A stretch of 64,000 nucleotides of DNA from Protoeuglena noctilucae (Eukaryota): NCBI GenBank assembly GCA_958009085.1, contig OY253674.1:992001-1056000 (forward strand), in the 5' to 3' direction. Shown here in pieces: positions 17,581 through 40,915 of this stretch. The notes beneath the pieces are model-generated. The model was not told the DNA's origin. It saw nothing but the letters and a program-made list of their open reading frames with translations, and made no database searches. Both the position numbers and the translations under genes were made by a program. Position 1 is the first letter of the stretch. Every line of letters begins with the position of its first letter.

Positions 17581-17665
17581 CCGGGCAGCTTGCACAACGA
17601 ACGTCTGTTCAGCGGTCACGCCTTGCAGTGTAGTGAGTGTGCATTGTGACGAGACCGCCCGTGCA

Positions 17666-19777
17666 TCAAAGGTCACCATAGGCACGGGCATCAAACATCA
17701 ATCCCCTAGCGGGCCGCGGCGCAGCCGGCGCCACCCCCGATTCGTTTGAAGTTCCACCTTTGCTTCCATTGGCGCTCGCGGGCGGCGCTCGGACGCTGCT
17801 CGCTGGGTCGGCGCGTGGGGCCGCCCCCATTGGTGGCGCAGCTGGCCCCGCGCCCGTCTCTGAGGCCCCCCTCAGCTTGCTGGCGGCCAGCGACGACCAC
17901 TCCCCCCTGCAGGTGGCAGGCAGACCTCGACTCACATTGTCCTGCGTCACCATCGCCACCCGCGCGGTACTCCAGCCACGCGTGCGCTTGCTCACCCCAA
18001 CACCTCCAGTGCTGCGGCCGCATCCCGCGCATTGCACGCCCCCGCAGCATCCACGCATGCCCCCTGCACCACCAGGGCGTCCCAAGCGCCCTTCCCCGCC
18101 CAGAACGACTCTGCCAGCCCCACCAAGTCGTCCAGGTACTCCTGCAAGGGCACGCGGTGTCGGAGGGATCGCGCGAGGCAGCAAAGGGAGGGCTTGACTC
18201 GCGCGGCTCCCCTCCCTCTCTGTCCCCGGCCCGGTATCTCCGCACCTCCACCAAGTCGCTGCAGGCCTGGCGAGCAGGGTTGGGGTAGGCCCCGTGCCGC
18301 ATGGCATACCGGAGGCACGCGCCGTCCAGCGCCGCGTCCACCCTCAAGTTCATCCTCTTGTTGCCCAGCTTGGGCCCCTGGATGGCCAGCTCGTACCGCA
18401 GGTCCGCCGTCACGTTCACGCACGCGCCGCACAGCTGCGGGCAGCGAGCCAGGGATGCCAATTGGGGATAAGCCTTGGCGTAAGCGAGGCAATCCTTGCA
18501 GAGGCTGGCTCAGAGGAGGAAACAGCCTGCGCCATCTCCCCCCTCTGCCAGGAGCGAGAGGCTCTCGGCCATGACATGACGGGGCCCACCTTGGGGACCT
18601 GGGGGGCGTCGGCAGCGGGGGCCCAGTCGGCGACGTCGGTGGGGCACGCTTGGACCATGTCCCGGCATACGGTCGCCCGGATGGACGGGACGACGCCGGG
18701 GTTGAGCTCCTTCCCTAGCAGCAGCCCCACGATGTCGCGCTTCCGGGCCCCCATGATGGCCTGGCACCCCTGCCGCAGCCACGCGGGCGTGTCACTGCCG
18801 TACACTTCCTCCATGGCGCAGAACCCCTGCACCAGGTCCTCCATGTCATCGTCGTAGGTCACGGACGGCGCTGGGGGGAGGCAGGGGGACACGTGGCAGG
18901 CAGGGATGGCGAAAGCTGACGGTGCAGCCGTCGTTGCGAGAAGGTCTGCCACTCACGGGCGTTGGGGTTCGCCTGCGCCTTCTCCCTCTGCCGGTGCAGC
19001 TGCAGCATCCACTGGATGTAGAAGTTCTCCACGAAGTACTGGCACGACGCGCAGAAGGGGTCGCGGGGCGCGAAGGGCGACGAAGGGACGCTGAGCTCCA
19101 CGGCCGACGTCAGCACCTCGGCGTTCACCGAGATGAGCTCCACGTCCACGGCCAGGCTGGGGTCGTCCTCGGACGTGGGGTCCGCCACCCAGACCCGGCG
19201 CTTCTCGCCTGCGGAGGTTATCCGGGCTGGTCGACGCCGTCCGCGGCAGGGCTGGGTGCGTCGCCGAGGCGGGCGGCCGGCGACGCCGCTTACCCAGGCA
19301 CATGCCCTCGATGGCAGGCGCCATGGCACCCAGGGGGGTGAGCCGCCGGGCCCCGACGGGCATCGGCACGTGCATGTCGCGCTCGTCAAAGACGTCCGGA
19401 TCTAACAGCCGCATGGACATGGGCCGGCCGACCCTGCGCGTCCCCTCGTCCACCACTGCGAGGGGCCACATCCGGACGCTCTGGCTGGGTGAGCCCCGCG
19501 GAGCCCGCCGCGTCGAGCGAATGACGCGACCCTTTCAGTCATCTTTTCGGTGAGGTTGGGCACGCGCGGCCTCGCCTTCGCCGCGAGAATCCCTCGTGAA
19601 ATAGTGGAATTCAATATCGTCCCCCATGGCCGCGGCCCGCTTGCAGGTCGGTGGGGCATAGTTCACCACGTACTGCACTCCGCCCTTCTCCAGCAGCTGG
19701 CATTGCAGGATGGGCGCGCACGCGGCAGCCAGGGCGGCGAGGAGAAGGACGCACTTCCCGCGCCGCAGCGCTCGCAT
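17666..19777 (-). CDS. Secretory-pathway protein: signal peptide, divergent FKBP-like domain and two saposin/Canopy-like Cys domains
   Basis: Hydrophobic N-terminus (VLLLAALAAACAP). FKBP-like CKRAAAMGDDIEFHY...IEGMCL|GEKRRVWV...LAVDVELISVN. Two six-Cys helical units (FCASC..FC..GC..VC....AC and LCGAC..AC..AC..AC....AC). C-terminus AYGDL*. Confidence 0.6.
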
Positions 19778-19900
19778 TGCCACCCGCTGCGCACCGCAAC
19801 GCGACGGGAACACAAGCCGGCAATCCCAGCAAACATGAATGCATCGCCCTTGCAATAGGACAGAAAGAAACGGCGATCCGAGTGGGAGAATCTGGCTGCG

Positions 19901-20878
19901 TCAACGCTTGTCCATCTCGCGTATCTGCCAGGCGTCCATCACGCCTTCCCTGGACGGCACATCCTCCCCGAGGACGAAGGAGACAGCTGCCTGGCCGACG
20001 CTGTCGACGCTCACGGGCGGGACGAACGGTGCCCCGACGATGGGAACGTGCATCAGCGTCTGGGAGATGCCCTGCAGAGCCAGGGCGACGCAGCCACAGC
20101 TTGTACGCGACTTTGTCTCTGTGCAGCATGGGTCACCACCTCTGTCGTGTTGGCTCGGCTTGCCTGGAGCGGCGGAATGGCCAGGAGCGTCTCCAAGGGG
20201 GCGCCGATGATGCCCAGGGGAAGGGTGATTCCCAGCGTGTCCACACGCCGGGGCCCGTAAATCATGCCAGGCCGGAGAGCCAGCCCGTCCGAGCCATATT
20301 GAGCGAACAGGGCCTGCTCGGCCGCCCTCTTCCCTTCCACATACCCCGCCAGGATGGGCTGCAGGGCAGAGCGCAGCAAGAGCCGACGTCATGTGCGCCA
20401 GCCAAGACTGGCTGAGGGCCGGGGCACCGGCATTCGCACGAGGAACGCAGCCGCCGCGCGCGGCTCACACCTTCGGGAAGCCGAAGTTGTGCGCCGACAG
20501 AAACGCGAACCTGGGGACCGAGGCCTGCCGGCAGGCCTCGATGGCCCGAATGTTCGCCGTCCCGCAGACCTCATACATCTTGCTGTTGCTCCCGAACGTC
20601 CCCACGCACGACACGGCGCCCAGGGCCCCTTCCAAGACGGCCTCGTACGTGCTGGGGTCTAACGCGGACCCCTCGACCCATCGGACCTTCTCGGCCCATT
20701 CCGCTTGAGTCCGAGGCCGCCCGGACCGATTCACCGACACCACACCCACGCCGCTCGCGAGGGCGGCGCGGCAAACGCTCGAGCCCACAAACCCGTTGCC
20801 GCCAAAGACGAGGACGTACGGGACGGCGCCGATGCCCTCTGCCGCCGTCGTCAGACCGCGCTTCCACGCGCGCAGCAT
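19901..20878 (-). CDS. NAD(P)-binding Rossmann-fold protein (atypical SDR / NAD-dependent epimerase-like), probably organellar
   Basis: Motifs VLVFGGNGFVGSSVC, VSVNRSG, GYVEGKRAAE (YxxxK), LRPGMIYG and PPVSVDSVG. Three exons; the second intron (20072-20163) is GC-AG. Confidence 0.88.
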
Positions 20879-21433
20879 CAACGCCCCTCCCCGGATGTAC
20901 GAGAAGGGAGGCGCGTGAAGAAGTACGCGAGGCTGCCACTGCAATTGCTTGGTCAGTGCATCAAGTACATGTGTGAAGGAGCTCAGACAGTTGCTTTCGA
21001 GACAGTGGGATGCGCTCTAGGCAAAGTGGTGCTGGCAATGCATCACTGGCATCAGGCTGAGGCTCGCACATGGGGAAAGCCCTGCCAGCTCTGCAGCGCA
21101 GGCAGCTGTTGTGAAAAAAGCCTCGCCCAGCTAATCGCGGCAAGGATAATAGGACAGCAGTGCGCCGGTGTGCCGCGTCGAGCTCGGCAAGCCTCCACGT
21201 GTCTTCAAGAAGTTCCACTAGGTTCAGTAATTAGCAAGCCCGTCCATAAGGCAACGCGTGTCCTGCCGTTCGCTGCGTCGGGGCGGCGGGATGTCGCTGG
21301 AGGGGCAGTTTATCCAGGCCAAGCCCCTGTTGCCCCGCGGCCTGTCGCCGACGCAGGTCGCCGACAAGGCGAGCAGCCCCTCGCTGGCTTGAAGACAGAT
21401 TGTTACGGCGTGACAAATGTGGTGGTGCTGCAG

Positions 21434-22116
21434 AGCCCCACCGCGCCGGCTCGGGGCTGTGCGTGCTCGCGCATCTCACGCATGTGCCGCTCCCCTGGGC
21501 CCGCTTGTCAATGCTTGGCGAAAAGTGGGCCGCGCTGCCCATACAGTTCTTCGAGAGTATTGACAAGCGAGACGTGGACCTTCTTCTAGCGACGCTGGTC
21601 TTCAACGCGAAGCGCGGGCCGAGCGCCCCGGGGGGCTTTTCGTGGGCGGAGTGGATCGATGGGCGGGAGAAGAGTAGGAAGTACCAGGCAAAGGTGGGTG
21701 CATGCGGTGGATGGCCGCCGACAGCGGCAACACCTGCCCCCGCACGTCGGCTGTGCTGACCCCTCGTGACCCTCCCGCGCCTGCCTGCAGTACAGTTTCA
21801 TGACCGAGGAGAGGCCCAACAGTGAAATATTCAACCCCAGCGTGGAGCGCTACCTCGTCTACAGCTCCACGGTGAGCCTTCCCAAGCACGGAAGCCGCTG
21901 CGCAACGAGCCACCAAGGGTCGGCCTCCCTGAACACCTGTGGCCCTCCCTCAACACACAGTACGGGCCGGTGCCTGGATACGCCGAGGGCGAGCAAACGG
22001 TGGACTCCCCCATCGTCGTCCACCTGCTGCTCGACGCGGGGGAGTGGAGGGTCAAGGACGCCAACATCGTGGGCCACCCCGGCTTCACGGCCAAACGGGC
22101 CCCTCCGAAGACCTAG
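21434..22116 (+). CDS. Hypothetical protein (three 3' exons; 5' end not resolved)
   Basis: GT-AG-bounded exons join in frame (...KYQAK|YSFMTEERPNSEIFNPSVERYLVYSST|YGPVPG...KRAPPKT*). No family recognised. Confidence 0.45.
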
Positions 22117-22182
22117 TCCGGCTTTTGCAACATCCCATATCTCTACTGCACTAGCGCTCTCCCAAGCAAGCATGCTGATCCA

Positions 22183-25100
22183 TTAAAGCTGATCATCGTC
22201 AAGGTCGTACACTTCATCCAGCTCGTCGCCGCCGTGCATGTAAGCAGCGTCCATGTCCAGGTGGTCGTGGTCGAGAGACGCGTGGTGCCCGCCTGCATCG
22301 ATGTGGTCCTGGCCCTGCGATGGCACAGCGCCACTTGTTGTGCGTCAAGCATCTCCGTCTGAGTGACGCAGAGCGCCAGGGGGCACAAGTGCCTGCATTA
22401 CGCACCGCGTCAGGTGTTGGCTTCCCGCCCCGAACTCCTGTCGCTTTCTTCTCCGCAACATCCTTGCGAGTCTTGTGGCCACGGAAAAGCGACTGCGAGC
22501 AGAAGAGACGGTTGGAGAATCACAGCCGGAGCTTTGGCACAGTATTGCCAAAAGAGCGCCACCCTATGCGCGCGTCGCACCTGGATCTTGGTGGCTGCTT
22601 GCTGCAGGACACCCTGGCTTTCCTCCTTGGCTGCCGCCGGCGCGCTGCTAGGCTGTCTCACTCCTGAAACGGCAGGCGGCGTCGAGCTGGCCCCGCCAAC
22701 GCTGGCACCCGTCGTGCCCGCCTCTTGTCTTTTCGCAGCTGGCGCACCCCGGGGGGGCTCGACAGCCGGTGCACCACGCACCGGTTCACCTGCCTCCTTT
22801 CTGATCTCATCTACCCTTTTCCGCGCCGTCATTCCCCTGAAAGCTGACTGGATTGACGTGGCTGCCTCATGAGCTTTCGCCTTTGCCGCCCCAAAGAAAC
22901 CCCCGGAGGCCTCCGCATTCGGGTCAGGGGCACCTTGAGCGCCAGCAGGGCCCTTTGCCGCATCCGGGTTAGCTTTGATGTCAGCTGTGCGTGGAAGTTC
23001 GGGTTTTTGACCAACCTGGGCTGCCCGTGGGTCCGATGAACTGCCTGCCGGAGCATCACCTCTTTTCTCGACAGGTGAAGGCACCGGAGGAGTTTTGTTT
23101 TGTGACCCAGCTGGTGCGGCCTGCGCAGGATTCACAGCTGGAGCCGTCGTGGGTGCAGGCTGTCCTGCTGCCGCTGTCGCGGGTGCAGCTGGCGCCGTCA
23201 TGGGTGCAGCTGAAGCCGTCGGTGCCGTCGTGGGTACAGGCATAGCCGACGCAGGCTTAGCTGCTGGCGCCGTCGTGGGTGCAGCTGGAGCCGTCGGTGC
23301 CGTCGTGGGTCCAGGCATAGCCGCTGTCGCTGTCGTGGGTGCAGGCTTCGCTGGTGCGTCGGCAGGTTCAGCCGCATTGCTTCCTGCCCTTCCTGCAACG
23401 GTGTTTGTGGTGCTCATCCCTTGAGCCTGCACACTTGCCTGCGGTCCAGCCTGCTGGGTCGCACGCCCCTGTCCAACGCCAGTGCCAGTAGCACCGGACT
23501 TAGCTGCCGCCGTCTGAGCTTGCACTGGCGGAGCAAGCGGAGGTGCGGGAGTTGCCGCCGGAGGGCTCGGATCAGCCTTGCCCCCTTTGGCTGCGACCGC
23601 TTGTGGCACAGGCTTCCCGGCGGTGTTGACCTCCGATGGCCTTGATGTTGCACTCGACGCGGACTGGGCAGTTGCCCCTCTCTCCGCGGGCACTTGAGCG
23701 GCCCCGTCGCCCACCGCAGGTGCAGGGGCCTTGTTACCGGCGCCTTTGCTTGTCGTCTTCTCCTGTTGGCGAGCTGCCTCCTTCCTGCCCATAGAGCCCC
23801 GAAATACGCTCTGTATCTTGGTAGCTGCGCGGTCCAAGAACCCTGGCGGGTGTTTCTCATCAGCGGTGCCCCCCTTTGCGCCCCCAGATGCGCTGCCGAC
23901 GGCCGTCTCCTGTGGAGCAATGGTGACCTTCTTGTCCTGCCCCGCCGCTTGTGGCTTCCCAGCGCCATGAAGGCCCGCTTTCTCGTCCTCAGACCCCTGG
24001 GTCGGGCCGGCCTGCGCTGCCCCCGCCTGTGCCGCCCGCCGGTGCCGGTCTTCGAACAAGTAAATGGGGTCGCCTTCGATCCACTGGCCGCACGTGAAGT
24101 GATACTCGGTACCCGTGGCTGGGTGGCGCACCGTCACGTCCTCCAGGAGCCAGCGGTCCTCTGGATTCTGCAGAGACGATGGCCCACACAAGAGTTCACA
24201 ACGGGCGGGAATGGTTGAAGAAGTGGGGCATGCTAAACGGCGACTGTTACTCACCTCCATATAGACACGCAGGCAGTACAAAGGCCCAATGTCGCCTTCG
24301 GGGCTAGACGTGTGAAACACGTCTGTCTTGCCCCGGTCGAAGGAGGCAGCAACCTGGTGCAGCTCGGGCATGAAGCCCTTCCGGCCCTCGTCCCCGTAAA
24401 TCTCGATGGCAACCAACGCATCCGTACCCGCCTCTGGGTCATCAGCGGTCCTGACCACCACCTCGTAGTCACCGGGGTGCGCGCGGGACTGCAGCGAGAG
24501 AAAAGAAAATGTTGCGCAAGCGGAAGTCTTGCGCCCAACAGCGGCAGCTAACTTCAGGGACGTCTAGTCTAGATGGCAGTGGGCGTACTCGCCTGTGACG
24601 CAGCTTGTGCTGGTTGCTCCTTGGACGTTGGCTGCACAGCAGCCCGGGCGAGCTTGGCTGGCACTCGGACGGCCCGTGTGCGTCCGCGGGGGATGTCCTT
24701 CCGCTTTGGGGGGTGGGGCTCGAAGCGCCACTTCCGCCCCGTGGCCTCCTCCTCCAACTCCACCCAGTCCATGGTCCACCCGTCTCCGACACCGAAGGGC
24801 GGCCCTGCCCCCTCCGTCCAGACTTCCGCGGAATCGAGCTCCCCGAGAGCTCCTCCAGATCGCACAAAATGGAAGGTGTCGACGTTGTGTGCCTCGAACA
24901 GATCTCGCGCCTCCTTGCCTCGAGGGAACAACGGCTGCCACGCAGCGCCCGCCTTATCTGTGTATGCCGAGAAAGAAAGAAATGTCTGATGAACTCCGCG
25001 TCAGCATACACAGATCACCACCCTGCTTCATGCAGTGATGCGCACCTGTGAACAGAATGAAGACGTCCGCCCCGGCACCAACGTTGTCCGCCGTAGCCAC

Positions 25101-28100
25101 ACGAATTGTGTACTTCGCCGCCTCCATGGCCGGGGCAGCAGCCTCAGGAGCGTCACGCAGGGGCGCTGTGCCGGATCCTTGTGAGGATATGCCGATGCCC
25201 TTATCAGGGGCAGGTTTCGCCTGTGGTGGCTGGGCGGCCGGTGCAGCTGTGGCGGGCTGGATCTCAGACCCCGCAGCTGGCTTCGGAGGCGGTGGGGGCC
25301 CCACTGCTGGCGCGCTAGCACCCACGCGTGCGGCGGTCCGCAACACCAGCGCCCCCTCGGATCCAGTAGACGCCGGAACCACGACCTGGTTGCCGGGGAA
25401 CTCGAAAGAAGCCCCGGAGGGTCCGTGCTTGGCGACGACGCGCTCCACAGCCCACTCCTCGCCGCCTTTCCTCCACAGCCGACACTGATGCAGCGAAAGA
25501 GACGGTCGGGATGTCGGGTGCATCATGCAGGACGCTGATCAATACACGACTGGATGTGGCCCGGCACTCACCACTACGGCGTCCGTTGCTCCTGAAGGTC
25601 CCACAACACTGAAAGTGTTGTTGCTGCCGATAACTGCGGTTGATCGGTCCAAGAGGGGACGCCACGCACGGCCTTTGGAGTCTTCCAACTCTGCCAGCAC
25701 CTGGAAAGGCCCCTTTCCGACCACCACGCCCTGCAAGGAAAGAGGACGCTCACGTCCTGACAATCATTCCATGCCAGCCGTGGCACTGTCTCCATGTAAC
25801 GCAGTATCCTCACCTTTGCTGAGAAAATCTGCAGCAACCACGGCTGATCTTGCGAGGCCATCGATGCCGGGGCTGGCGCAGCCTGGGTTGCCCGCTCTGC
25901 CGCAACGTCAGCAGACTTCGCGGGAGGCCCCGCGTTAACACTCGCAGGGGTTGTTGGCGCTGGTGGAACCTTCTGAGTCCCTGCCGAAGGCGCTGGCAAC
26001 TCCGTTCCAGCTATGGGCTGCGGGCTCTGCGAGGGCGCCTTTGCCGCTGGCGGCGCAGGGGGCGCTGCTGGTTTTTCCTGCAGGCCGGGTCCCCCACGCG
26101 CCGCGGGAGGTTGCGCTGGAGCTTGTGCTTGCGTGGCGGCTGGTGCAGGCGGGGTCGCACTCGCTTGGGAAGCGGTCGGTGCCGCAGCAACTGCAGGTGC
26201 TGTTCCCTCCTTGATCTTCTTCGCCTGCAGGGTCTTGGCCTTGTCAGGCCATTCGGCAAACGGGACCTGGTCATGGCAATCACATTGCCACACCGCCCCA
26301 GTGGCCAAACGGCACACCTCCACCTTGTCGCAGACCCACTTGTCACGGCCCTCCTTCCAGATGCGACACTGCGCATGGGCAAGCGGAACCTCGCAATGCA
26401 AACACTGCCAAAAGCCCCCAGACAGCATACCATTCATATCACCCTGAACTCACCAGACTGAGCTCGCTGATGGGTTTGGAGCACGTAGCAAAGAACTCGT
26501 CAACGGAGCCCGACTCAAACATCTTCTTCGTCTGCTGTAACGTCGGCTGCCAGGTGACACCCGTGTCGGATTGCAGCTCCAAGTGCACGACACTGTCCGT
26601 GCCTGTGAAGAAGCCCTGCGGCAGGCACAGAGCGAGTTGGCTTCACGAAGCCCCGCCAAAGCGTACAGTGTGCTAGGCGTGATGCGCCCCCTACCTTGGC
26701 CGTGTAAATCTTGATGGACCACTTTTCTTCCACCACCGGGGCTGAGCCTGGCGCACCCAGGGCGCTCAGACCCTCGACAAGCTCGAGCTGCTGCACCTTG
26801 CCCGCCCGGTGGTTGTCCAAAAGCCACTCCTTGCGGTTCCCGTGCGTCTTGTCGAACCACTCGCGGCACACCCACGAGTACGTGCGCCCATGCGCCACGT
26901 CAGTGACGCTGAGCCGGTCCAAGAACCAGTTGCCTCCGAACGAGAAGGGCTGCGGCGACGGGGAGGTGAGGGGGCGCTGGGCGGCTGCTGGGCTCCTGAT
27001 CTCTTGAAACCAAGCATGCCTGAATACTCACCATGGGCTTCTCTTCTCGACAGCAATTTTGGCAATGACGTTCGAGAGCGCCTGGTCGGCTGGGACCTCG
27101 ATTTGAAAAGAGTCCACCCGCCCTTGCTCGAAATTGTTTGTCGAATCGCGAAGCTCGTAAGGCGCTCCCGAAAGCATCCGCCCTTTGTCGTCTACGACCT
27201 CCAGAAGCACCTTGTCATCTGTGCCGGCGCCCCGCTTGTTGGCTGTCCACACCGTCGCCGTATACAGCACCTTCGGTGCCTCACCGCCCGCGACCATGCC
27301 CTCTGCCAGCTCGACACGGGGACTCTCTTTGTTAAGCCATTTGTTGCAGGGGAAGACGTACACCCGACCATCGCCCTTGTCCAGCACCTCGACGTGTGCA
27401 AGATGCCACGCATCCAAAAGACCAGATGGCTTGAGCTCCACCTCGATCTTCGACAGCCGCCCACAGTCCGTCCCCAGCAGGTCAAACGTGTCACATTTGG
27501 CGCGCTCAAAAGCCGCCCGCTGCGCCGGCAGGCGGTAGCCCCCGATGAAGCCCTTGTCCCCGTGGAGAGAGACAGAGACGTCACCGTCTGTACCGGCACC
27601 CCGAAGGTCCGAGGTGTACAGCTTGACGGAGAACGGGTGTCCCCCCGCTCCCTCAGAGCCTCCCTGGTCGCCCTTCCCGTCCCCGTCAGCATCCACTGCG
27701 AGCTCCCGCTGCAAGCCCGCCTTTCGGTCAAGCCATGCCTTGCAGGGGAACCGATAGGCCTTGCCCGTCTCGAGATGAACGACCTGGACGTGCGACAAAT
27801 GCCACTGCGACAGGAGGCCCCGCCCATCAGTCTTCACCACCACCTTGACCACATCCCCCAGGTCGTCGCAGTCGAGCATGAACACGTCCTCTTGGCCACG
27901 CTCAAACAGGTTGCGCCCCGGCAAAACAAGCGGCCGCTCACCCGAATCGCCCTTGGTCCCCACAAGCTTGATGGTCACATCCGAATCCGTCCCCGCACCC
28001 CGGATGTCACTGGTCTGCACAGCGACCCTGCGGCCAAGGTCCGTGAAGGCGTTTGCCAGCTGCGTGCCTGAGGCCAAAACCTCGCCTGACAAAGTTTCTG

Positions 28101-31100
28101 CTTCATGCATCACGCACCGATACCGATGCTTCACAGGAGCACCCTCCTTGGGCTGGGTCCCCTTGATCTCTGCACGGCATTGGTTGCGTTTGTCGAGCCA
28201 GTTGCGATAGCTGAAGAATGAACTGCGCCCCTGCACGGGGTGGTAAATCTCGACGTAGTCCAAAAGCCACGTAGGGAGGAGGCCCTTCCCGTCGTGCTCA
28301 ACCGTCACGCTCTGTATCTCGCCCACGTCCGGGGCCTCGAGGTGAAAGACGTCGCGCGCCCCTCGCTCGAACAGGTTGCCTGATGCGACCAAGGGCCGCC
28401 GCGTGACGGCGCCCTTGTCACCATGAATGGACAGGAACACGTCAGCGTCGGTCCCTGCCCCCCGCGCGTCTCCCGTCGCCACGGTGACGATGTACTCGAT
28501 CAGCGGCACCAACTCCGAGGCGCGGTCCGTGGAGGGCACCAGCACCTGCGTGAGGGATTTGGGGTCCGCCGACGAGAGCCAACGCCCGCAGGGGAAGAAG
28601 AAGGACCGGGACGCCACAAGGTCAACGACCTCCACGTCCTGCAGGTGCCAGTCGCCCCCGAGGCCCCGCGCGTCCGTCGTGACCTCGCACCGCGTGATGT
28701 CGCCAAGCGGGGGGCACGTGATTGTGAACTCGTCACGGCGGCCACGTTCAAAGTCGTTCCGGGACGACTCGAGGCGCTGTGCCCCAGAATCCACCGAAGA
28801 ACCATCCGCAGCCTTCCCGTACAGAGTAATGAACACGTTGGCGTCCGTTCCGGCGTTGCGTATGTTGCTGGTGCGGACGAGCACCTTGTACGCCTGGTGG
28901 TCGGGGGGCCGGTCGGCCGGGCTGCCAGCCACTCCTCGAACCCGGGGTCGGCTGGCAGTCACGGTGGCGAACAGGGGGAAGAAAGTCTGCTCGTTCGTCT
29001 CCATGTCCACCACCTGCACGTACTCCACCTCCCAGCCCCCTCCGATCAGCCCTCCCAGCGTGCCGAGAACGCCCTGCTTGGCCGCAAATCCGATATCCAC
29101 CTCTGTCAGTTTGCCAAGCACGCTGCCTGGCGGCAGCTCGACCAGGAAGGTGTCCATGCGGCCGCGCTCGAAGTCATTGGCGGATGACTCGAGGCGGAGG
29201 TCCGCGGACTTGCCGTCCTTGCCAGCCAACACGATCGACACGTCCTTGTCGGTGCCTGCCCCGCGCTTGTCCGCCGTCTTGACCTGAATCTGGTACCTGC
29301 GCCAACATCAGTTTCAGGCACGTGACGGTGAACACGAAAAACCAGCGTGCCCTGCACTGGCGGTTCGCGTGTCGGGGGGCGCGGGTGCGGGTACCTGTGC
29401 GGCTGGGTGCCCGTCGGGGCCTTCTGGTTGGGCAACAGCTTGACAGTCGTGCCCACGCCGTGCTTGCCGTCCAGCCAGTTGCCCAGGTAGAAGAGCGCCT
29501 TCTGTCCGGACGACAGGTTGAGTACCTCCACGTGGCTGAGGTGCCATGCTGGTGCAAGACCGCGGTTGTTGTGGCCTATGGTGAGACTCTGCGTGTGAGT
29601 GGCGAGGATACGCACCGGTGTCGCCGCAGGGGCCAGCCGCAGGGGGGAGTCGAGCGTCACAAGCAGCCCATGCCTGGCCCCCCCTAGCCTCTAAAGCACC
29701 TTGATCTGGCCGACGTCGGGCCCTTGCACCACGAATTCGTCCACGGAGTTGCGCTCGAAGGCGCCCTTGCCTCCGTCGAGGACCATGGCATGCGTGGGGC
29801 CCTGCAGCTGAGACTGGACGGGTCCCCCTAGCACCTTTGCGGTTGCTTGAAGCCGCTGACGAGCTGCTTTAGCCAAGGTCTTCGCGCACCTTGTCCCCCT
29901 CAATCACGGCCGACACCTCGGCGTCCGTCCCTGCCCCGCGGATGTCCGACGTGTGCACGATGAGCTTGTACTTGAGGAGGCCAATCTGCGGGACGGCCAA
30001 CGCCTCGAGTCGGTCTGGGAATCCGTGGGTTACCACCTCTTGATGATCAGCAACAGGCGGGGCAGCGCAGCGCAGGGTCACCTTGGCTTGCTCCGAGCCC
30101 TCCGGGAAGAGGGTGCACTCGGTAGAGAACGGCGGCGCCGACTTGTCCAGCCACTGGTCGGCGAGGAAGGACACGCGCTCACCGGTGGCCACCGACATGA
30201 CCTCCACGCTGTGCAGATGCCACCCGGGGTTGAAGCCGCGGTTGTTGTGCCCGATCCAGATGCTCTCGATCTTCCCCAGCGGCTTGCTCATCACCGTGAA
30301 GACGTCGGTGCGGCCCCTCTCGAAGTCGTCCTGCTCGAGTCGAGCTTGTGCCGCCCGGAGCTGACCGAAGCGCCCTTGTCGTCCCGCCCGAACATCTCGA
30401 TGTGGACGTCCGCGTCTGTGCCGGCACCCTTGAGGTCGCTGGTCCGCACCGTCACCTTGTAGGCCACCTCCCCGGAGGCATCCACGCGCGCCCCGGGCAC
30501 GAGGTCCCGCTCCACCTTGCCGTCTGCGGCACACCGGAAGAGAGGGCGCCTCCCGCGACGTGATGTGCGCGCATGGCAAGCGGAAACGGCATGCACAGTC
30601 CCCCTCACCGCCATGCTTCTTGTCGAACCACATCCGGCAGTCAAAGTAGTACTGCTTGCCGTTCCCCTCGTCGACCACCTCCACGTGGTCCAGGTGCCAC
30701 GCCGCGCCCAGGCCCCGGTTGTCGTGCCCGACCGTGATGCCCGTCACCTCCCCTACGTTCTTGGCCTTCTTGAGCAGGAACGTGTCGGCACGGTTCCGCT
30801 CGAAGTTGTTGGCGCTGTTGTCCAGCGTCATCTTGCCCGTCTCCAGCTCGCGTCCCCGCGCGTCCTTGCCGCGGATGTTGATGAACACGTTGGCGTCCGT
30901 GCCCGCCCCGCGGATGTCCGACGTGTAGGTCGTCACGCGGAAGGTCGTCGTGTCCAGGGAAATGTTCGCGCCGGGCTTCAATCGGATCCGCGACTGCTTC
31001 TGCGGGGAAGGCCCGAAGACGCGCCCTGCCTGGCCCACGGGGCGAAGGGCGTACCATGGCGCCCTCCCCGCCCGGCCAGCTGCTCGGAACCCGAGGGCCA

Positions 31101-34100
31101 CACCTTGTCGAGCCACTGGTTGGCGATGAACGAGAACCGCTTCTGCTTGGCCGAGTCCGTGATGACCACCTGCTCCAGGTGCCAGTCCGAGAAGGCCCCC
31201 GCGCCGTCGTGGCCAATCTCAATCTCCGAGAGGTCCCCGATCTCGTGGCTCTTGAGGAAAAAGGTGTTCATCGTGTTGCGCTCGAAGTTGTTCCTGCGAG
31301 GCACGTACCCATTGGCGGCCTGACTGGCGAGCCCGACCAGGCCGACCCCTTGGCCCGAGCCGCCGCCCCCCGGGCTCACTTGCTGTTGTCCAGGCGGACG
31401 GGCCCGTAACTGCGGGTCCCCTGCCCGAACAGCGTGATGGTCACGGTGGCGTCGGTGCCTGCACCCCGCACGTCAGACGTGTACACCTGCACGACGTACT
31501 CGACCAGGGAGTGCTTGGTGCCGTCGCTGGGCAGGAGCGTCACGTACCGCTCGCCCCCGCCGTCCTTGGGAATCCAGTCGCCGTGCTCGAAGACCATGGG
31601 CTGCGGTCGCACCAGGGGACAACACGTTCCTTCGGGGACACAGCCGGGCCGCACGCGGTGGCCCTCTGCGTGTACCCCCACCCCAGCAGGACTCACGCGC
31701 GACCCGGCCGCGGTGACGACGACCTTGTTCAGGTGCCAGGCGCTGAAGAGCCCCTTGCCGTCGTGGCCGATGCTGATGCTCTGCAGCTCCCCGACCAGGC
31801 ACTCGCACTGGAACTTGTCGCAGCGATTGCGCTCGAAGTTGTTCTTGCTCGTCTCGAGGCGGAGGGGGCCGAAGGATCCCTCCGTGCCGTTCAGCGTCAC
31901 GTCCACGTTGGCGTCCGTGCCCGCGCCCTTGACGTCCGACGTGTACACCTCAATGTCGTACAGCTTGGGCTTGGGGCCCTTGCCGTCCCGGGGGGTCAGC
32001 ACGCGCACCGTCTGCCCGTCGTCCTCGTCCTTGGCGAGCCAGCGCCCGCAGGGGAACACCACCGTCATCTTCAGCAGCTGCGTGCAGGTGCAGCTGCCAC
32101 GGGTGAGCCTCAGCCCACAGGCACAGGGATTGCAGAGGAACCCCACCGCCCTCGCCTTGTTCGTGACCTCGACGCGATCCAAGTGCCAGCCGGGCCCAAA
32201 CCCCGTGTTGTCGTGGCCGATGCGGAGGCGGTCGGGGAGCCCAACGTCGCGGGACCGGACCACAAACACGTCCTTGCGGTTGCGCTCGAAGTTGTTCTTG
32301 GCGTTGTCCAGGTTTAGTTCCTGGGTCCATGGCACGCTCGGAGATCCCGAGTCCAACATGCAGGGCAGCACAGCAAAGGCCCGCTCAGGGGCCATGACCT
32401 GTCTATGCTGCCACTCACCGGCGTGGACCCCTTGGGCCCCATCAGGACGATGTACACGTTGGCATCCGTGCCCGCGCCCCGGATGTCCGACGTGTAGACT
32501 GCCACCTCGTACCCCACCTCGTCCATGTCGACCTTGCGCCGCTTGGACGCCGCCGCCTCCGCCTCCGCCTCCGCCGCCGCCGCCGCGTCCCTCCGCCGCA
32601 GCTCCTTCTGCTGGTCCGCCAGCGGCACCGTCTGGGCCACCAACACCCGCAGGGGCCGCTCGTACACAAAGTTGTCGCCCGAGGGCAGCTTGGGGGGCGC
32701 GGGCTGCTCCGCGCGCAGCACGCGCCACTGCATCACGGCCCGGTCCCGGCCCCCCACCGACACCACCAGGGCATTGTCGGGGGACACGCGCACGTTGGCC
32801 ACGTGGGCCGCATGCCCACGCAGCTCCCTGCGGTGGCGGTGGCAAACGCGAGTGTGCTCCACATCTGCGCACCGCTTGCGTCCATGGATGCCCACCCGCC
32901 CAGCCGCTGCTCGCCTGCAGGGCGCCCCCTCCACGACGCAGGGGTAGTTGAAGAGCCGCACCATGCCGTCGTCCGACCCCGTCACCAGGACCTGCCCCAT
33001 GCCCTCCAGGAAGTTGGTGAGACCGGGGGAGGACGGGTACGACCGCGACACGGCGTTCACGTCCGTCCCGTCCGTGCCCTGGCCCAGCCTCCAGATGCCC
33101 ATGACCGGGAACCCCAGCACGCACGTCCACGTCGCCCACGCCACGTCCCGCTGCGATCCCCGCACCCGGCGCCCCGTGCCCCCGTCAAAGTAGAGGATCT
33201 CGTACGCCCCCGAGTCGCTGCGGGAGAAGACGGGGGTGCCGTTGCTGCCCGGGACGCGCGCGGCCGCAGCGCTCCCCACCGCGGCCGGCCCGGCACCTCA
33301 TGAGGATGGCGGAGTCGGCACTCCAGTCTAGGTGCGTGACGTAGCTCGAGTGCCCGGTGCACTTGGCCACCACGAGGTAGTTGTCCTCCACGCTCAGCAG
33401 GTAGACGAAGTTGTCGTGGGACGCCACGGCCAGCCGGGCCCCGTCGGGCGAGTACCGGACGTCGGAGATCTCCTCGCTCGACACGTGCGCTCGGGCCACC
33501 GTCTTGCGGAGGTCGGACGTGGGCAGCACGACCAGGGCGCCGTCGGTCGCCCCCACCGCCGCGTGCATCCCGTTGGGGGAGAAGTCCACCGCCGTGCACA
33601 GCAGCCCCAGGGCCACGCGCGCCAGGAGCTGCCGCGCCTGGGCGTCCCAGATGCACAGGTCCCCCACGTCGCTGGCCGTGGCGAACTTGTGCGCGACCTT
33701 GGGGTGGAACGCCAGGCCCGCCACGGACCCCTTGTGCCCGTCCACCAGCACCACCGGCTCGTCCTTGTGCGCGCGCACTACCTCCACCACGTCGCACCCG
33801 GACGTCCCCAGCACCATGTCCCCGGTCAGCGGGTGGCAGTCCAGGGCGCGGACCCCGGGTGGCACGGTGCTGCCGGGGTCGTCCAGGGGGATGCTCTGCG
33901 GCGGCCAGCAGCGACGCGCGCGTGACAAAGCCGTCGCGGTGCGGTGCCTCCGAGTCACCATCGCAATGCTCGGCCCTCACCTTCACGGGGCCCTCGAGCT
34001 TCCCTCCCAGCAGGTTCCAGACCAGGAGCTGCCCGTCCGCGCCCCCCGTGACCAGCTCCGTGTTGCCGTTGCGGAGGGCGAGCGCGCGCACTCCGCCGTA

Positions 34101-35716
34101 CGTCTTGATGCCGTTGAAGGGGTCCCGGATCCGCTTCCCCGGCGCGTGGGCCTTCTCCACATGCACCAGGGATCCCGTGGCCCCCGACCGCCCCGACACG
34201 TCGAAGAGGAGCACGTCGCCCTTGACACCCCCGGCCGCGAGAAGACCGTTCGGCAGGAAGCAGACGCCCCGGATGTCCTGCACCTCCACCCCGCCGAAGG
34301 TCCCCTGCGCTGCATTGTACGTCTCCCGGCCACGCGAGTCCCCCGACAGGGACCAGACCTTCAGGTGCTGCGGGGGGAGGCGCGAGGGGAGGCGCTTTGT
34401 GAAGCGAGCGGGGAAGGCGCAGGCTAGCCATTGGCTCCTCGGTGAGCTCGCAGACGGGAACCGCCCTCGCCTTGACGCCGAAGGTGACGAACATGTAGGG
34501 CTCGCTGGCGGCGGGGGGGGTCGCCTTGCCCGTCCAGTCGCCGCGCGGGAAGGGGTTCCAAGCAATCCCGGCGACTTGGGGCGGGTCGCCCTTCCGGGCC
34601 ACGCCCCGGAAGACGCAGGTGCGGCGCTCCCACTCAAAGACGAGGACCGTGTGCTGGTCATCGCCGAGGACCACGGCCAGGCGCGAGCCGCAGGGGCTGA
34701 AGGCGGCGGCCGCCACCATGGTGAAGCTCTTGTGCGCCTCGGGGGGGAACTCGAGGCGGCACACCTCCTGCAGGGTCACGGTGTCCCACACCACGCAGCA
34801 GGGGGGGGCCGCCAGCGACGCCACCTGCCCCGAGGCCGCGAGCCGCCGCCCCGGGTGCATGCAGAGGCACGTGACGTCGTCGTCGTGTCCCAGGAAGAAG
34901 CGCTGCCGGTTGCCCTCCTTGTCCAGGCACACCACCACGGCCGCCACCGGGAACACCACGTGGCCCTGGCTCGTGTAGAAGACGTTCGGGGCCGTGTGGT
35001 AGATGCCCGCGTAGCCGTGGACGTGCTCCAGCGCCAGGTCCACGTCCGGCACCCGCGCCGACCGCGCCACGTCCGCGTCCGCCAGCAGGGTCGGGGTGTG
35101 CACGGCCTTGCGGCAGAAGCGGTAGGTGATCTTGCCCCGGAAGCTGTAGTCGTCGCCCACCTTGAAGGGGCCGCGCTTCACGTCCGCCAGCCCCAGCATC
35201 CGCGTCTGGGACCCAAACAGCGTGTGGACGAAGACGTCGTAGGGCATGCGGTGCTCCTGGTCGCAGCCGTACTTGCGGAAAAGGGCCGACGCGTTGGCCT
35301 TCGTCAGCGTGACGCCCATGCGCCGCCACACCATCCGGAACTCGTCCTGCAAACGAGGCACGGGGCAGTACGCGTCGAGGAAGCCTTGGCTGGGGAAGCT
35401 GGGGTCGACACCCTCGCTGCGTGCGCACCATCGCGACGAGTCCCGGGGGCCCGTACTGCCCGGCGTCGCGCTTGGCTTTCTCATGCATGCGGAAGGCACG
35501 CAGCGCAATCATCTTGGCGTCCTCGTTGAAGGAAGCCATGGCGGCCAGCGTGTTGCGCATCGTGGTCTCCACGCCCGCCAGGCCCGACGTCTGCGGCAAC
35601 GAGAGGGGCAGCCGGCTCGATGAAGAGCGCCAGGGCCTCTGGGGCGGCACACATGTTTCCGTGAATGGCCCACCTCCCCCTCGGCCGCAGCACCCCGCGT
35701 CTCCGGGACCCCCCAT
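22183..35716 (-). CDS. Giant multidomain protein: EF-hand-like pair, EML-type HELP/WD40 propellers, about 16 PLAT/LH2 repeats (LOXHD1-like) and 3 IQ motifs
   Basis: HELP-like LEHVHGYAG...QRFFLGHDDDVTCL and WD40 repeats (GHSSYVTHLDWS, GHAAHVANVRVS..VSVGGRDRAVMQW). Repeated PLAT signature TSDIRGAGTDANV...NNFERN...IGHD...WHL...C..WL. IQ motifs AATKIQSVFRG, AATSIQSAFRG and AATKIQ|SLFRG. Stop TAA at 22183-22185; start approximate; one apparent frameshift near 30330. Confidence 0.8.
23189..23323. repeat. Coding tandem duplication: two 60-nt copies (23189-23248 and 23264-23323, 3 mismatches) in a Pro/Thr/Ala-rich linker
   Basis: Direct comparison of the two copies. They encode AMP[G/V]PTTAPTA[P/S]AAP[T/M]TAP on the minus strand, flanked by more degenerate PTTAPA units. 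Confidence 0.85.
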
Positions 35717-36297
35717 CGATTCGCGCTCCAATAAGGACTCGGCAGGCGGACTCGCTCCCCATCCGGGCCCATCGAGTGGGCGAGCGGGTTTACGGAGTGC
35801 TGCGATGAGAAATCAAAAACGCTGTGATGGACAAATGGCAAACGACGGAGATATTAGGCACAGCCATTGAGACGTTATGTAGATGGCAGCTCGTCGGAGT
35901 TCTGCCGGCACCCGCAGCGCCAACGCTGCGCACCGCGAGTGGGAGACGTCCCAAGGTGCTCCCCGGATCGCCGGGATCCTGGCCCGGACGCGCAGAAGGA
36001 TTACTCATGAGAGTTTCACGAGAAATGGCTGGCCATGCGGCCTGGACGGCGTCTCATGCATTCCCTGCAGTCATTCTTCTCGTGCATGTGACATCCTGGC
36101 TCCTGTGTGTTGAGCTGAAGCCGATACATGCAAGATGTCGTTGTCAACGTCTCAGTCCCGCAATGTCTGGCCACAACTGAATTAGGCTTTAGAGAGAAAA
36201 TGGGAGAAACAGTTCTGGCAGGGCTTTTACCGTTTTGGCGGCGCCAATGGCGCATGCAACCGCTTCCCAGCTTCCCATACCTGCGCCAAACGTAACT
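35717..36297. promoter_or_regulatory. Probable bidirectional promoter/5'UTR region between the EML-PLAT gene (-) and the CCDC82-like gene (+)
   Basis: Visibly more AT-rich stretch between divergent genes. Positional inference. Confidence 0.35.
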
Positions 36298-38401
36298 ATG
36301 GTCGACGTCCTTGACCTGAGGGCGCTCCACCGCCCACGAGTGATGGATAATTTGGAAGGTGACTGCTCTTCCCGGCCGGCAAATGCATGGAAACGCGAGC
36401 GATGACCGCCTGAAGCTGCACTTCGCACGAGCTCGTTTGCGCAGACGCGGTCGTGCGGAACTCGGTCCTGAAACGCCGTAGGCGACGCGCCCAGGCAATT
36501 GAGAGCTCGCCCTCGGCCGAGTCGCTCGAGGATGTCGTCGAGGTGGAGAGCGACACGCCGCGCAAAGCGGCAAGGGTTGTTGTGGTGGTGAGGGGCTACG
36601 CGGTCATTGCATCGCAGCCTTCATCCGCCGCCTTGAGGGGGTTTAGCAACCCTCGCACTTCGTCGCAGGATTCCGGTGATGAGGGCGATGGTGAAGAGCC
36701 CACGCAGCGGCAAGCGACGCAGCGGTCGCCAAGCAGAGTGAGGGGGGCCATGTCATGCGCGACGGGAGCGCTTGTGTACAGGGGTCGCAGCAACAAACTC
36801 GTGCTTCGTGCCTGACCCCCTTGTGCCTACTCCACTGCCACTGCCAGGCCGTGTGGGAGGAGCAGATGCGGGCCATGACGAAAGAGCAGCTGGAACCTCA
36901 AGGGAGTGAGGATGAGGACGAGACGGAGGGGGAAGACGAGGAATCGCTCGGCGGCTTCATTGTCGAGGACGAGGTGCGAATCTGATGACGACGCCCTGCA
37001 CCTAGCCCCAGTAGCGTGCACGATGCAGTCCTTGACGCGGTGCAGGAGGGGCACGTCACCACGCGGGGGGCCGAGGACAGGAAGGCAGTGGTGATGAACG
37101 AGCTTCACCTGCTTGGGGGCTACCAGGACGAAGCGGACGCTTTCAAGGTGTACTTGCAATACGTCTTGCTGGACCTCATCGACCCCGACATGAAGGTGGG
37201 ACCGGGCGGCGCAATCGTGTGCCGCAACCCCGCAAAGGTTCAAGGGTACGACGGGGCACGTACCTATCGCCCAACTCCCGCCCGCAGACGTCGCTGGCGA
37301 GGCCGGACATGCACGAGAACAAAGCATATTTCGACCGCGCCATCGACCGGGTGGAGGGCAAGGTCGGGGACTTGATGAAGCTCTGCGCGGGGAGCTCGGC
37401 TTGGATGTCCGCGGCCTCCTCGCGGGTGTTTCTGGCGGCCATGCACCAGCTGCCCGGGTGAGGGCGGCCCGGCCATCCGTTTGGCCTTACGCGGATGGGC
37501 AGCAGAGGATGAGGCAGGAATCCCACTTCCCTACCTCTGTGCTGCAGCATCGAGCTCAGCACGCTTGAGGAGCCGGCCAACTGCGAGATATGTGGTAGGG
37601 ACAGGCATCCGGCTATCTTTGAGATGTGCTTCCACGGCCGCCCCTGCCCCCCACCGTGGGCGCGCCTTGCCCCATCGCACGGCGTGGCGGAGGCCGTGCA
37701 GAGGACGATCGACGAGGTGAGGTGGAGAAAGGAAGGGCTGCTTGCAGAGACTCAACCTGGGAGCTCGCCGTGGCCTGCGACATCGCTGCTGTGTCGAGTT
37801 GCAGGACGAGGAGGCGGCGGACCTGGCAGAAGGTACCCGGGGCTTGACGACCCACTGCTTCAGCGTGGGTCGCTTCTGCAAGATCCGCGTGTCAACGTAC
37901 CACGCCCTGTTCCACTACCGCACGCACCTCGCGCGCTGGCTGCGGTCGCGGCTCCTGGAGGTCCGGCAGGAGGGCGTCGAGTGAGCCGTGCCGCTTGCTT
38001 TCTTTTAGCAGCACAAGTGCTTGAGTGAGGCACACAGAGACCTCAACGCTGTTGAGATACTTCCCCGCAGGCTGGACGCGCGCGCCGTGGAGTCGCTGCT
38101 GGACACACCGAGCCTGGTGGAGGAGGCATACGCGGTCTTTCAAGAGCTCATCAGCGTCGCCGTCAAGTTCCAGGACGAGATGCGGGGCAACTGGAGGGCC
38201 GTGTACCACGAGGTGGACTACCGGCAGAGCGGGCTGCTCAAGGCGCTCGTGGGCGGGTATGGCCCCGACGACCGATGGCTGCCGGGGGACGACCTGGAGG
38301 GGGGCCACCAGGAGAGCACGTCCGAAAGCACGTCCAGCGCGAGCACGACCACCTCCTCGTCCGAAAGCGACTCGGAAGCAGACGAGGACGAGGGCCCCTG
38401 A
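36298..38401 (+). CDS. CCDC82 / DUF4211-domain protein
   Basis: Acidic N-terminal region with ESLGGFIVEDE, then AFKVYLQY, CEICGRDRHPA and FSVGRFCKIRVSTYHALFHY, which fit the remembered DUF4211 Cys/His pattern. Multi-exon. Confidence 0.68.
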
Positions 38402-38417
38402 CACGGCGGCCAGACCC

Positions 38418-40397: not shown

Positions 40398-40915
40398 CTC
40401 GCCCCGACCCCAGGAGTGCCGTCGTCGCCGGTCCTTCGCTAGTTGCTAGCTGTTTTGAACCTCCGCGCCGCCAGCAGATCGCCGCGAGCTCAGCAATGGC
40501 CGTGGATGTGGCACGCACACGTCTCACACGCTGTGCCGCCGATGTAACGCCGGGGTGCACAGGTCCTGGGCAGGCACACTTGTTTGTGGACAGTGCACGA
40601 CCATCCTGCCATTGGGGGCTTGAAGAAGTCATTATTGGGTAAAAACCCTGCAAGACCTGGGGGCGGCAGGGGAAACAGCCCTGAGACGTTTTCAAACCGC
40701 TGACGTGAAAGGCAAGGACCGCTTCCGCTGTTCGGCTAGCCGCGTGCCGATTTCTCCCCGCCAATTTTGTTCCTGTGCGCAGTGTTGAATGGGTTAGCCC
40801 AGTGACAGGCCGGCGCCAACTCCTGACGACGTCTTGAGAATGGTTTGGTAGGGTACTGGTATCGCTGCAGGAGGCCCTTGCGTGCTCAGGGTGCCCGGTG
40901 CCACGCGGGCAACTG

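Follow-up and report, generated by a model that had tools for sequence, protein, structure and literature searches.

An EML head, a PLAT array and IQ motifs in one gene model of Protoeuglena noctilucae, and the chlorophyte EML-PLAT family to which it belongs

LOXHD1, an animal protein of the stereocilia that takes part in hair-cell mechanotransduction, consists of many PLAT domains in tandem, each distinct from the others, and has neither an EML head nor an IQ tail. The proteins of the EML/EMAP family (EML1-4, EML5/6, FAP16/ADF3 and DCX-EMAP) share a HELP motif and a two-propeller TAPE domain, and none of them carries PLAT. Here we describe a locus of Protoeuglena noctilucae at which these parts occur together, within a stretch of 64,000 nucleotides (NCBI GenBank assembly GCA_958009085.1, contig OY253674.1, positions 992,001 to 1,056,000 of the forward strand) that is called the window throughout and whose first letter is position 1. 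On its minus strand an EML-type head, an array of PLAT domains and a tail with IQ motifs very probably form one real gene of a chlorophyte EML-PLAT family. An earlier note, made from the letters of the window alone, had read this order of parts and had proposed a calcium-regulated flagellar or rootlet tether between microtubules and membrane. The single gene, the order of its parts and the domain counts stand; the novelty falls, as the architecture is already that of a chlorophyte family, and the mechanism, weakened by the present results, is kept below in conditional form.

Among the described EML proteins, Chlamydomonas FAP16/ADF3 resembles EML5/6, is flagellar and is required for deflagellation signalling; the available part of its source mentions no PLAT domain (PMC5068960). 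Drosophila DCX-EMAP, which acts in sensory cilia, is, according to a source available in part, a further EML to which a foreign module has been joined. The window protein has one TAPE unit, in contrast to three in EML5/6 and, judged by size, in FAP16. On the PLAT side, two LH2/PLAT proteins, POC2 and MOT51, appear in the accessible part of the Chlamydomonas transition-zone proteome (PMC4888484); both share PLAT with the window protein and, in these partial sources, both are at the flagellar base, POC2 having been placed there by antibody staining (PMC6215392, in the part available). Since POC2 is Cre10.g436000 (PMC5430608, likewise), it is not the EML-PLAT family locus. The likeness to LOXHD1 is limited to the PLAT array. 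The best matches with PLAT only include LOXHD1 of sea urchin and mink, and several algal family members have been automatically named after LOXHD1, but the window protein, with its EML head and IQ tail, lies outside that animal family of tandem PLAT only and groups with algal fusions in the EML tree.

The same order of parts is found in CAG9464667.1 of Pedinophyceae sp. YPF-701 (P0094, 3,109 residues), which combines HELP and the two EML propellers with a PLAT array and an IQ tail, and which aligns with residues 37-2648 of the window model in a single BLASTP alignment at 49% identity. It differs in having 14 PLAT domains where the window has 16, four IQ motifs (Pfam 58.1 bits) where the window has three, and a WW-like end (pattern W...YYFN...W..P) in place of the acidic/His tail, whereas the window protein has two extra divergent PLAT domains resembling no. 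13 and far longer Ala/Pro linkers. The Chlamydomonas reinhardtii orthologue, CHLRE_03g178100v5 (P0050, 3,624 residues, UniRef name ‘Flagellar associated protein’), likewise has HELP and both EML propellers, followed by 20 PLAT domains, is 42% identical over about 2,550 residues and stands in the same clade of the EML tree. By the strict pattern neither this protein nor its volvocine, Dunaliella, Tetradesmus and Monoraphidium counterparts have IQ motifs in the tail, and their PLAT numbering agrees only partly with that of the window. In contrast to the window protein, chlorophycean tails, and that of Pycnococcus, end in a conserved Trp/Tyr-rich block, termed WW-like on the strength of the tail alignment and of PF00397 in Tetrabaena; our own WW pattern missed the chlorophycean tails.

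One minus-strand gene of 28 exons

The fusion can be read directly from the sequence, because a single stop-free open reading frame (ORF) runs from the last of the EML part into the first PLAT domain. This ORF, 32314..33297 on the minus strand, contains both RDRAVMQWRV, from the last EML blade, and the PLAT1 start, YEVAVYTSDIRGAGTDANV. The earlier note had placed the uninterrupted exon at about 32420-32828, and the modelled junction exon, 32827-32419, bears this out. Between the two parts lies a 69-residue linker of Ala, Glu and basic residues (32718-32512); the splice after ...GSTP and before ELNLDN agrees with homologue P0197, and the junction was aligned as a single stretch in P0094, P0097, P0101 and P0197. 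The Ala/Glu run of the linker is encoded by a GCC/GAG-type simple repeat (32541-32599), which was masked as a repeat in read mapping.

The sole database protein identical to the window at 32314-33297 is P0092, an ORF call of 276 residues made on ENA contigs. This bacterial-style gene call on eukaryotic DNA reads through the 87-nucleotide (nt) intron 32914-32828 and has three sister ORF calls on 14 further contigs. The only exact database match to the locus is an unspliced ORF call. An ESM Atlas search with the junction exon returned WD40/EML clusters only, under 0.9, and gave no lead.

The gene was modelled with our own splice-aware dynamic programme, in which codon log-odds were taken from obvious exons and donor and acceptor weights from introns, and the result was corrected by hand. 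The model runs from an ATG at 35772 to a stop codon at 22185-22183 (Table 1). Its 27 introns measure 75-111 nt each and have AG acceptors, with GT donors in 23 and GC donors in four (24489-24592, 34368-34470, 32828-32914 and 32078-32155), a high proportion of GC-AG introns within a single gene. Automatic models that ended early, or that drew false introns of 141-390 nt through the Ala/Pro linkers, were dropped and the long open frames were used instead. A MAFFT alignment of the model with four homologues was collinear, with no indel run of eight or more residues upstream of residue 2581, indicating that the model agrees with the relatives from the EML part through the thirteenth PLAT domain. 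A Pfam scan of the three minus-strand frames of 22000-36000, with stops entered as X, gave HELP, Beta-prop_EML, Beta-prop_EML_2, PLAT and IQ, in strand order.

The locus is an expressed nuclear gene whose host is a GC-rich marine green alga, the GC content of the window being 62-75% in 2-kb steps. Contigs of marine metatranscriptome runs and of a DNA run were mapped onto 21500-36500; three metatranscriptome runs, all from one study, contain 7-23% of the sampled words, and DNA-like runs contain all of them. Since the RNA contigs cover the gene only in parts, uncovered parts carry no information. Contigs of run X2 gave five minus-strand introns that match the model (22315-22405, 22493-22580, 24489-24592, 24958-25045 and 29589-29699), so that the GC-AG intron 24489-24592 is seen spliced in RNA. 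A 601-nt X2 contig (record 9) splices the last three exons and continues without a break from 22313 through the stop codon to 21960. Four further joints were rejected as looking like paralogues or other organisms: three in DNA run X4, where sides of 23-27 letters are separated by 709-1734 foreign letters, and one in X2 (32961/33091), with CA..CT ends and a side of 24.

The head of the protein is that of an EML. Beta-prop_EML_2 scored 135.7 and 121.8 bits in two exon frames (cut-off 90), Beta-prop_EML scored 66.7-69.4 bits on the exon-3 part, over profile positions 1-120 of 267, and exon 5 matched the EML1 structure 4ci8 with an E of 9.4e-23. Near the N-terminus the pattern W..N[RK]WG is present in eight of the 16 homologues examined, and alignment shows that a helical module of about 90 residues is conserved throughout the EML-PLAT family and in sister algal EMLs.

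The PLAT array follows. Pfam PLAT (PF01477) matched 8, 2 and 2 stretches in the three minus frames, with 431, 123 and 96 bits. A PLAT profile of our own, built from the homologues and run on the spliced model, recovered 15 domains of 45-127 bits at i-E<1e-3, besides a single marginal unit (no. 14, i-E 0.29). When the β1-like start WLLQIFSAK is taken into account, there are 16 positions, from 32511 to 24072, and the earlier count of 16 PLAT units is thereby upheld. PLAT 1-12 (26842..32511) are of the canonical GAGTD type, with 74-127 bits each on this profile. Nos. 13-16, which the earlier note had called divergent, score weakest, and the linkers among them are 49-153 residues long and 34-47% Ala+Pro. 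The closest PLAT relatives of solved structure are lipoxygenase and polycystin-1 PLAT domains.

Each of PLAT 1-13 best matches the PLAT of the same number in CAG9464667.1 (13 of 13, 12 of them reciprocally), and the window's PLAT 16 matches its PLAT 14. This one-to-one matching indicates that the array is a series of individually conserved stations, not a homogenised repeat. Window PLAT 14 (25377-25840) and 15 (24719-25112) both best match PLAT 13 of CAG9464667.1 and, judged by sequence, look like lineage-specific extra copies of no. 13 in which the GAGTD motif has been lost. PLAT 14 no longer scores as PLAT.

Three IQ motifs follow the array, in agreement with the earlier count. Pfam IQ (PF00612, 37.1 bits, cut-off 20.3) found two stretches in exon 26, and the third motif forms only once the RNA-confirmed intron 22493-22580 is removed. 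Beyond these three, the strict IQ pattern gave one match only among 19 homologues, at residue 281 of P0049 (Monoraphidium) and not in the tail; among nine further proteins examined, IQ motifs were found only in CAG9464667.1, where a WW-like end follows them. The acidic/His-rich tail that the earlier note had described is encoded by the last exon.

The chlorophyte EML-PLAT family

The EML-PLAT architecture is not new: it is that of an annotated chlorophyte family, and the window gene is an orthologue of this conserved family of HELP, TAPE and 12-23 PLAT domains. The databases carry annotated proteins of this kind, 2,667-4,183 residues long, from at least 13 named chlorophytes, among them Edaphochlamys, Pleodorina, Tetrabaena, Astrephomene, Chlamydomonas schloesseri, Chlamydomonas sp. 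UWO241, Dunaliella, Gonium, Tetradesmus and Monoraphidium. Cluster members add Chlamydomonas reinhardtii (CHLRE_03g178100v5), C. incerta, Pycnococcus provasolii, Pseudoscourfieldia marina and Pedinophyceae sp. YPF-701, and one further family cluster includes a Tara Oceans member.

With the junction ORF as query, two of the 33 matches listed (574-2000 residues) have both EML_2 and PLAT. With the junction exon scored in a frame-long query, 12 of the 16 matches listed (2566-8168 residues) have EML_2 and PLAT, and the other four PLAT only. A Pfam re-scan found HELP, EML and EML_2 with 12-20 PLAT stretches in five of six long proteins and in P0094; P0041, which is truncated at the N-terminus, is without HELP. 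The same order, with six PLAT stretches, is seen in P0002, and EML_2 and PLAT alone in the partial protein P0001. In all, P0002 and seven of eight further homologues that were scanned show HELP, EML and EML_2 together, followed by 6-20 PLAT stretches. When the junction exon was searched exhaustively by HMMER against 1.84 billion representatives, there were 4,847 matches at E<=0.001. The best 150 of these comprise four full EML+PLAT proteins, five fragments of such proteins (one being the window's own unspliced ORF call) and 63 PLAT-only proteins, the rest being WD40. As CAG9464667.1 combines HELP, EML, PLAT and IQ, the full architecture is already present in a public proteome, under the name ‘unnamed protein product’.

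In a tree of the EML region (35 rows) all 13 fusion rows fell into one group with an SH-aLRT of 95, the window being sister to the chlorophycean set, which fits a single origin of the fusion. The tree excludes 11 rows that cover less than 450 residues of the query, a duplicate from the same cluster and five proteins with PLAT only; P0094 is also absent from it.

The striking fusion is therefore real and belongs to an old, well-conserved green-algal family labelled ‘hypothetical’, ‘LOXHD1-like’ or ‘flagellar associated’ in the databases. Our literature searches found no paper on an EML-PLAT fusion, none combining ‘PLAT domain’ with EML terms such as ‘TAPE domain’, none linking Chlamydomonas, LOXHD1 and flagella, and none naming Cre03.g178100 in its main text. 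One member occurs in Chlamydomonas, an organism in which mutants and tagging are routine, so the role of a tubulin-binding head on a PLAT ruler can be tested directly.

A second giant algal PLAT-array family, of about 2,650-2,710 residues, has a PH domain (PF00169) in place of the EML head; its members P0046 and P0047 come from Volvox reticuliferus and Chlamydomonas sp. UWO241.

Proposed function and alternative readings

Our best explanation, which blends the identity of the gene and its family with a tether mechanism, is moderately probable; the mechanism itself, a link from tubulin or microtubules to membrane, is offered tentatively. The protein would be a long modular scaffold whose TAPE head holds tubulin or a microtubule-based structure, binding either alone or via a partner, since nothing like the lattice-binding parts of EML1-4 was seen. 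The 16 PLAT domains would form an extended chain whose stations may meet membrane lipids or membrane-protein partners, as in lipoxygenases, polycystin-1 and LOXHD1, and, the domains being individually conserved, this chain would be more like a ruler with distinct stations than a simple repeat. The IQ tail could carry calmodulin- or centrin-like light chains, which would make the link calcium-sensitive. The probable site would be the flagellar base, the transition zone or the rootlet region, not the flagellar shaft. Flagellar base or rootlet is our best guess, in view of the source name of the Chlamydomonas orthologue, the other transition-zone PLAT proteins and the absence of the orthologue from an isolated-cilia proteome. 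In a more specific and rather improbable form of the proposal, EML-PLAT proteins would be the microtubule-anchored counterpart of LOXHD1, tying flagellar-base or axonemal/rootlet microtubules to polycystin/TRP-type channel complexes and, in the Pedinophyceae-like lineage, being calcium-gated through IQ-bound calmodulin or centrin; a fixed partner set, strung along a ruler of some tens of nanometres, would then explain why 13 PLAT stations correspond one to one.

Several observations weigh against a calcium-sensitive flagellar tether. In EML proteins the HELP motif is buried, and microtubule association of EML1-4 needs an N-terminal trimerisation domain and a basic region (PMC4761370, in the part available). 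No trimerisation domain of the EML1-4 type was seen by alignment, no coiled-coil predictor having been run, and the N-terminus aligns instead as the different helical module that is common to sister algal EMLs. The TAPE domain of EML1 associates with soluble tubulin (same partial source). The degenerate EF-hand-like pair reported for the N-terminus was not recovered: exons 2 and 3 matched no Pfam EF-hand family at E<=1, and the canonical Ca-loop pattern gave 0 matches in the model and seven family members, while it was found in three of the four EF-hand-annotated EMLs scanned (P0019, P0023 and P0024, not P0010). The conserved helical module occupies this place. Furthermore, Cre03.g178100 is absent from the cilia mass-spectrometry tables of Sakato-Antoku and King (PMC9561859), which use v5.5 identifiers and list PKD2 and the PLAT protein Cre03.g166800; this counts mildly against the calcium-regulated flagellar or rootlet tether, as the name ‘Flagellar associated protein’ counts mildly for it. 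It is also absent from seven of the eight supplementary files of a deflagellation transcriptome paper (PMC3689809), and from the supplements of PMC6215392, PMC5430608 and PMC8226298 and the searched files of PMC4966982.

Part of this evidence would suit a protein of the same gene and family that is no membrane tether, with PLAT as an array for protein-protein docking, or as a spacer, on microtubules of the cytoplasm, the spindle/phycoplast or the basal body, or as a factor that handles tubulin, in either case having no direct lipid contact and no flagellar role. Such a scaffold, which we regard as somewhat unlikely, would account for the absence of the Chlamydomonas orthologue from a cilia proteome that lists PKD2. 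The fusion is also present in Tetradesmus, Monoraphidium and Pycnococcus, which are non-motile in their usual form, and Rab6-interacting protein and polycystin-1, whose PLAT domains act in protein contacts, are among the PLAT structure matches. In addition, the documented binding of the TAPE domain is to soluble tubulin rather than to the lattice (PMC4761370, in the part available). The source name of the Chlamydomonas orthologue speaks for the flagellar tether instead, as does the flagellate habit of most named EML-PLAT carriers. No named Trebouxiophyceae or Mamiellophyceae are among the matches listed, which points the same way as weak evidence, few rows being named.

Two readings that deny an intact single gene are much less likely than either the tether or the non-membrane scaffold. 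Some points weigh against the gene model. The RNA pieces are short contigs, of which none extends over the entire gene or links the EML-PLAT exon to the exons next to it; moreover, contigs enter or cross introns (X1 record 3 across 29589-29699, X3 record 17 into 29297-29394 and X3 record 19 into 32321-32418). That the EML and PLAT-repeat parts are two adjacent genes, or an assembly chimera, so that the fusion is only apparent, would fit the lack of an RNA contig from exon 6 through exon 8, but is hardly credible: the last EML blade and PLAT1 lie in one exon, with neither a stop nor space for terminator and promoter between them; proteins annotated independently in more than 13 species have the same junction, as do ocean metagenome contigs; and the locus lies whole within one 154-kb DNA contig. 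The DNA as given also has two 1-nt frame breaks, which interrupt PLAT5 and the junction of exons 18 and 19, the latter between a strong donor at 27031 and a strong acceptor at 26950. PLAT5 scored 122 bits end to end with X at the break, 71 with a 125-nt in-frame bypass intron (30455-30331), and 40 before running into stops as the DNA stands; PLAT12 scored 80 bits with X at the second break and 71 with a weak in-frame donor at 27069. At E<=1e-10 the ORF of PLAT5 matched no protein, and metagenome contigs, scanned twice for exact patterns with room for one more base at a break, gave 0 loci. Base-calling error is the most likely cause, because about 2,270 downstream codons stay open and conserved. 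It is improbable that the window copy is instead a recently disabled gene (a pseudogene or strain-specific null), its breaks real and its protein truncated after PLAT4. In keeping with that reading, the DNA as given meets stops 15 codons past the first break, and the 154-kb contig has 0 differences and 0 gaps relative to the window over 21500-36500; this contig is, however, possibly the window's own source, so that its agreement is not independent. The roughly 2,270 codons past the first break are open in the right frames and their domains still score 45-112 bits, RNA shows transcription and splicing of the 3' exons, and both breaks lie at GG runs, where one added base restores full-length PLAT matches, the typical pattern of a miscall. 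For the Protoeuglena noctilucae genome, the single-gene reading provides a full 28-exon model and two sites at which either the assembly or the gene is broken.

Feature coordinates and neighbouring transcripts

Table 1. Coordinates of the features of the EML-PLAT-IQ locus in the window, all on the minus strand (-).
Feature	Position	Basis or remark
Whole coding region, 28 exons, 3,727 codons	22183..35772	splice-aware dynamic programme and hand curation
Exons 1-7	35772-35674, 35590-35429, 35346-34471, 34367-33981, 33895-33297, 33217-32915, 32827-32419	
Exons 8-14	32320-32156, 32077-31697, 31600-31380, 31293-31104, 30999-30609, 30523-30082, 29985-29890	
Exons 15-21	29801-29700, 29588-29395, 29296-28143, 28067-27032, 26949-26695, 26615-26454, 26368-25814	
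Exons 22-28	25730-25572, 25484-25046, 24957-24593, 24488-24255, 24167-22581, 22492-22406, 22314-22183	
N-terminal motif YWSANRWG	35710..35733	supports exon 1 and a start near 35772
Helical module, about 90 residues, interrupted by intron 35428-35347	35212..35560	alignment
HELP motif	34930..35049	Pfam PF03451, 42.2 bits (cut-off 27), exon 3
Two EML beta-propellers (TAPE domain), exons 3-7, ending in RDRAVMQWRV	32719..34929	Pfam
Junction exon: last EML blade, linker and PLAT1 start	32419..32827	one stop-free frame
PLAT 1-6	32511-32024, 31960-31562, 31498-30994, 30942-30613, 30461-30139, 29970-29463	own profile, Pfam PLAT
PLAT 7-12	29295-28972, 28890-28567, 28494-28183, 28029-27721, 27633-27325, 27264-26842	own profile, Pfam PLAT
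Divergent PLAT 13-16	26721-26270, 25840-25377, 25112-24719, 24467-24072	61, 1.6 (not significant), 46 and 75 bits
Frame break 1, in PLAT5	30331..30332	KLDSS / DDFERG one base out of phase
Frame break 2, exon 18 donor	27032..27033	strong GTGAGT donor, strong acceptor one base out of phase
IQ motif 1	23775..23828	Pfam IQ exon 26, pattern match
IQ motif 2	22812..22865	Pfam IQ best stretch, exon-26 residues 433-452
IQ motif 3, interrupted by intron 22580-22493	22457..22598	pattern on spliced model
Acidic/His-rich C-terminal tail, last exon	22186..22314	spliced model
3' untranslated region, at least 223 nt	21960..22182	X2 contig record 9

The intron-entering X1 and X3 contigs lie at 29507-29722, 29087-29318 and 32383-32540, and one of the introns concerned is spliced in X2. 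As these contigs run into introns, the libraries must also contain unspliced RNA or DNA of the alga, and for this reason only joints were counted as evidence of splicing.

The plus-strand neighbours (16000-22400 and 35800-42000) matched no Pfam family at E<=1e-4. Plus-strand GT..AG joints were present in RNA on both flanks (21691/21789, 21870/21960 and 36356/36443), which makes both neighbours separate plus-strand genes. The convergent one, with introns 21691-21789 and 21870-21960 in RNA, ends within the 3' untranslated region of the EML-PLAT gene, and the two transcripts therefore overlap tail to tail.

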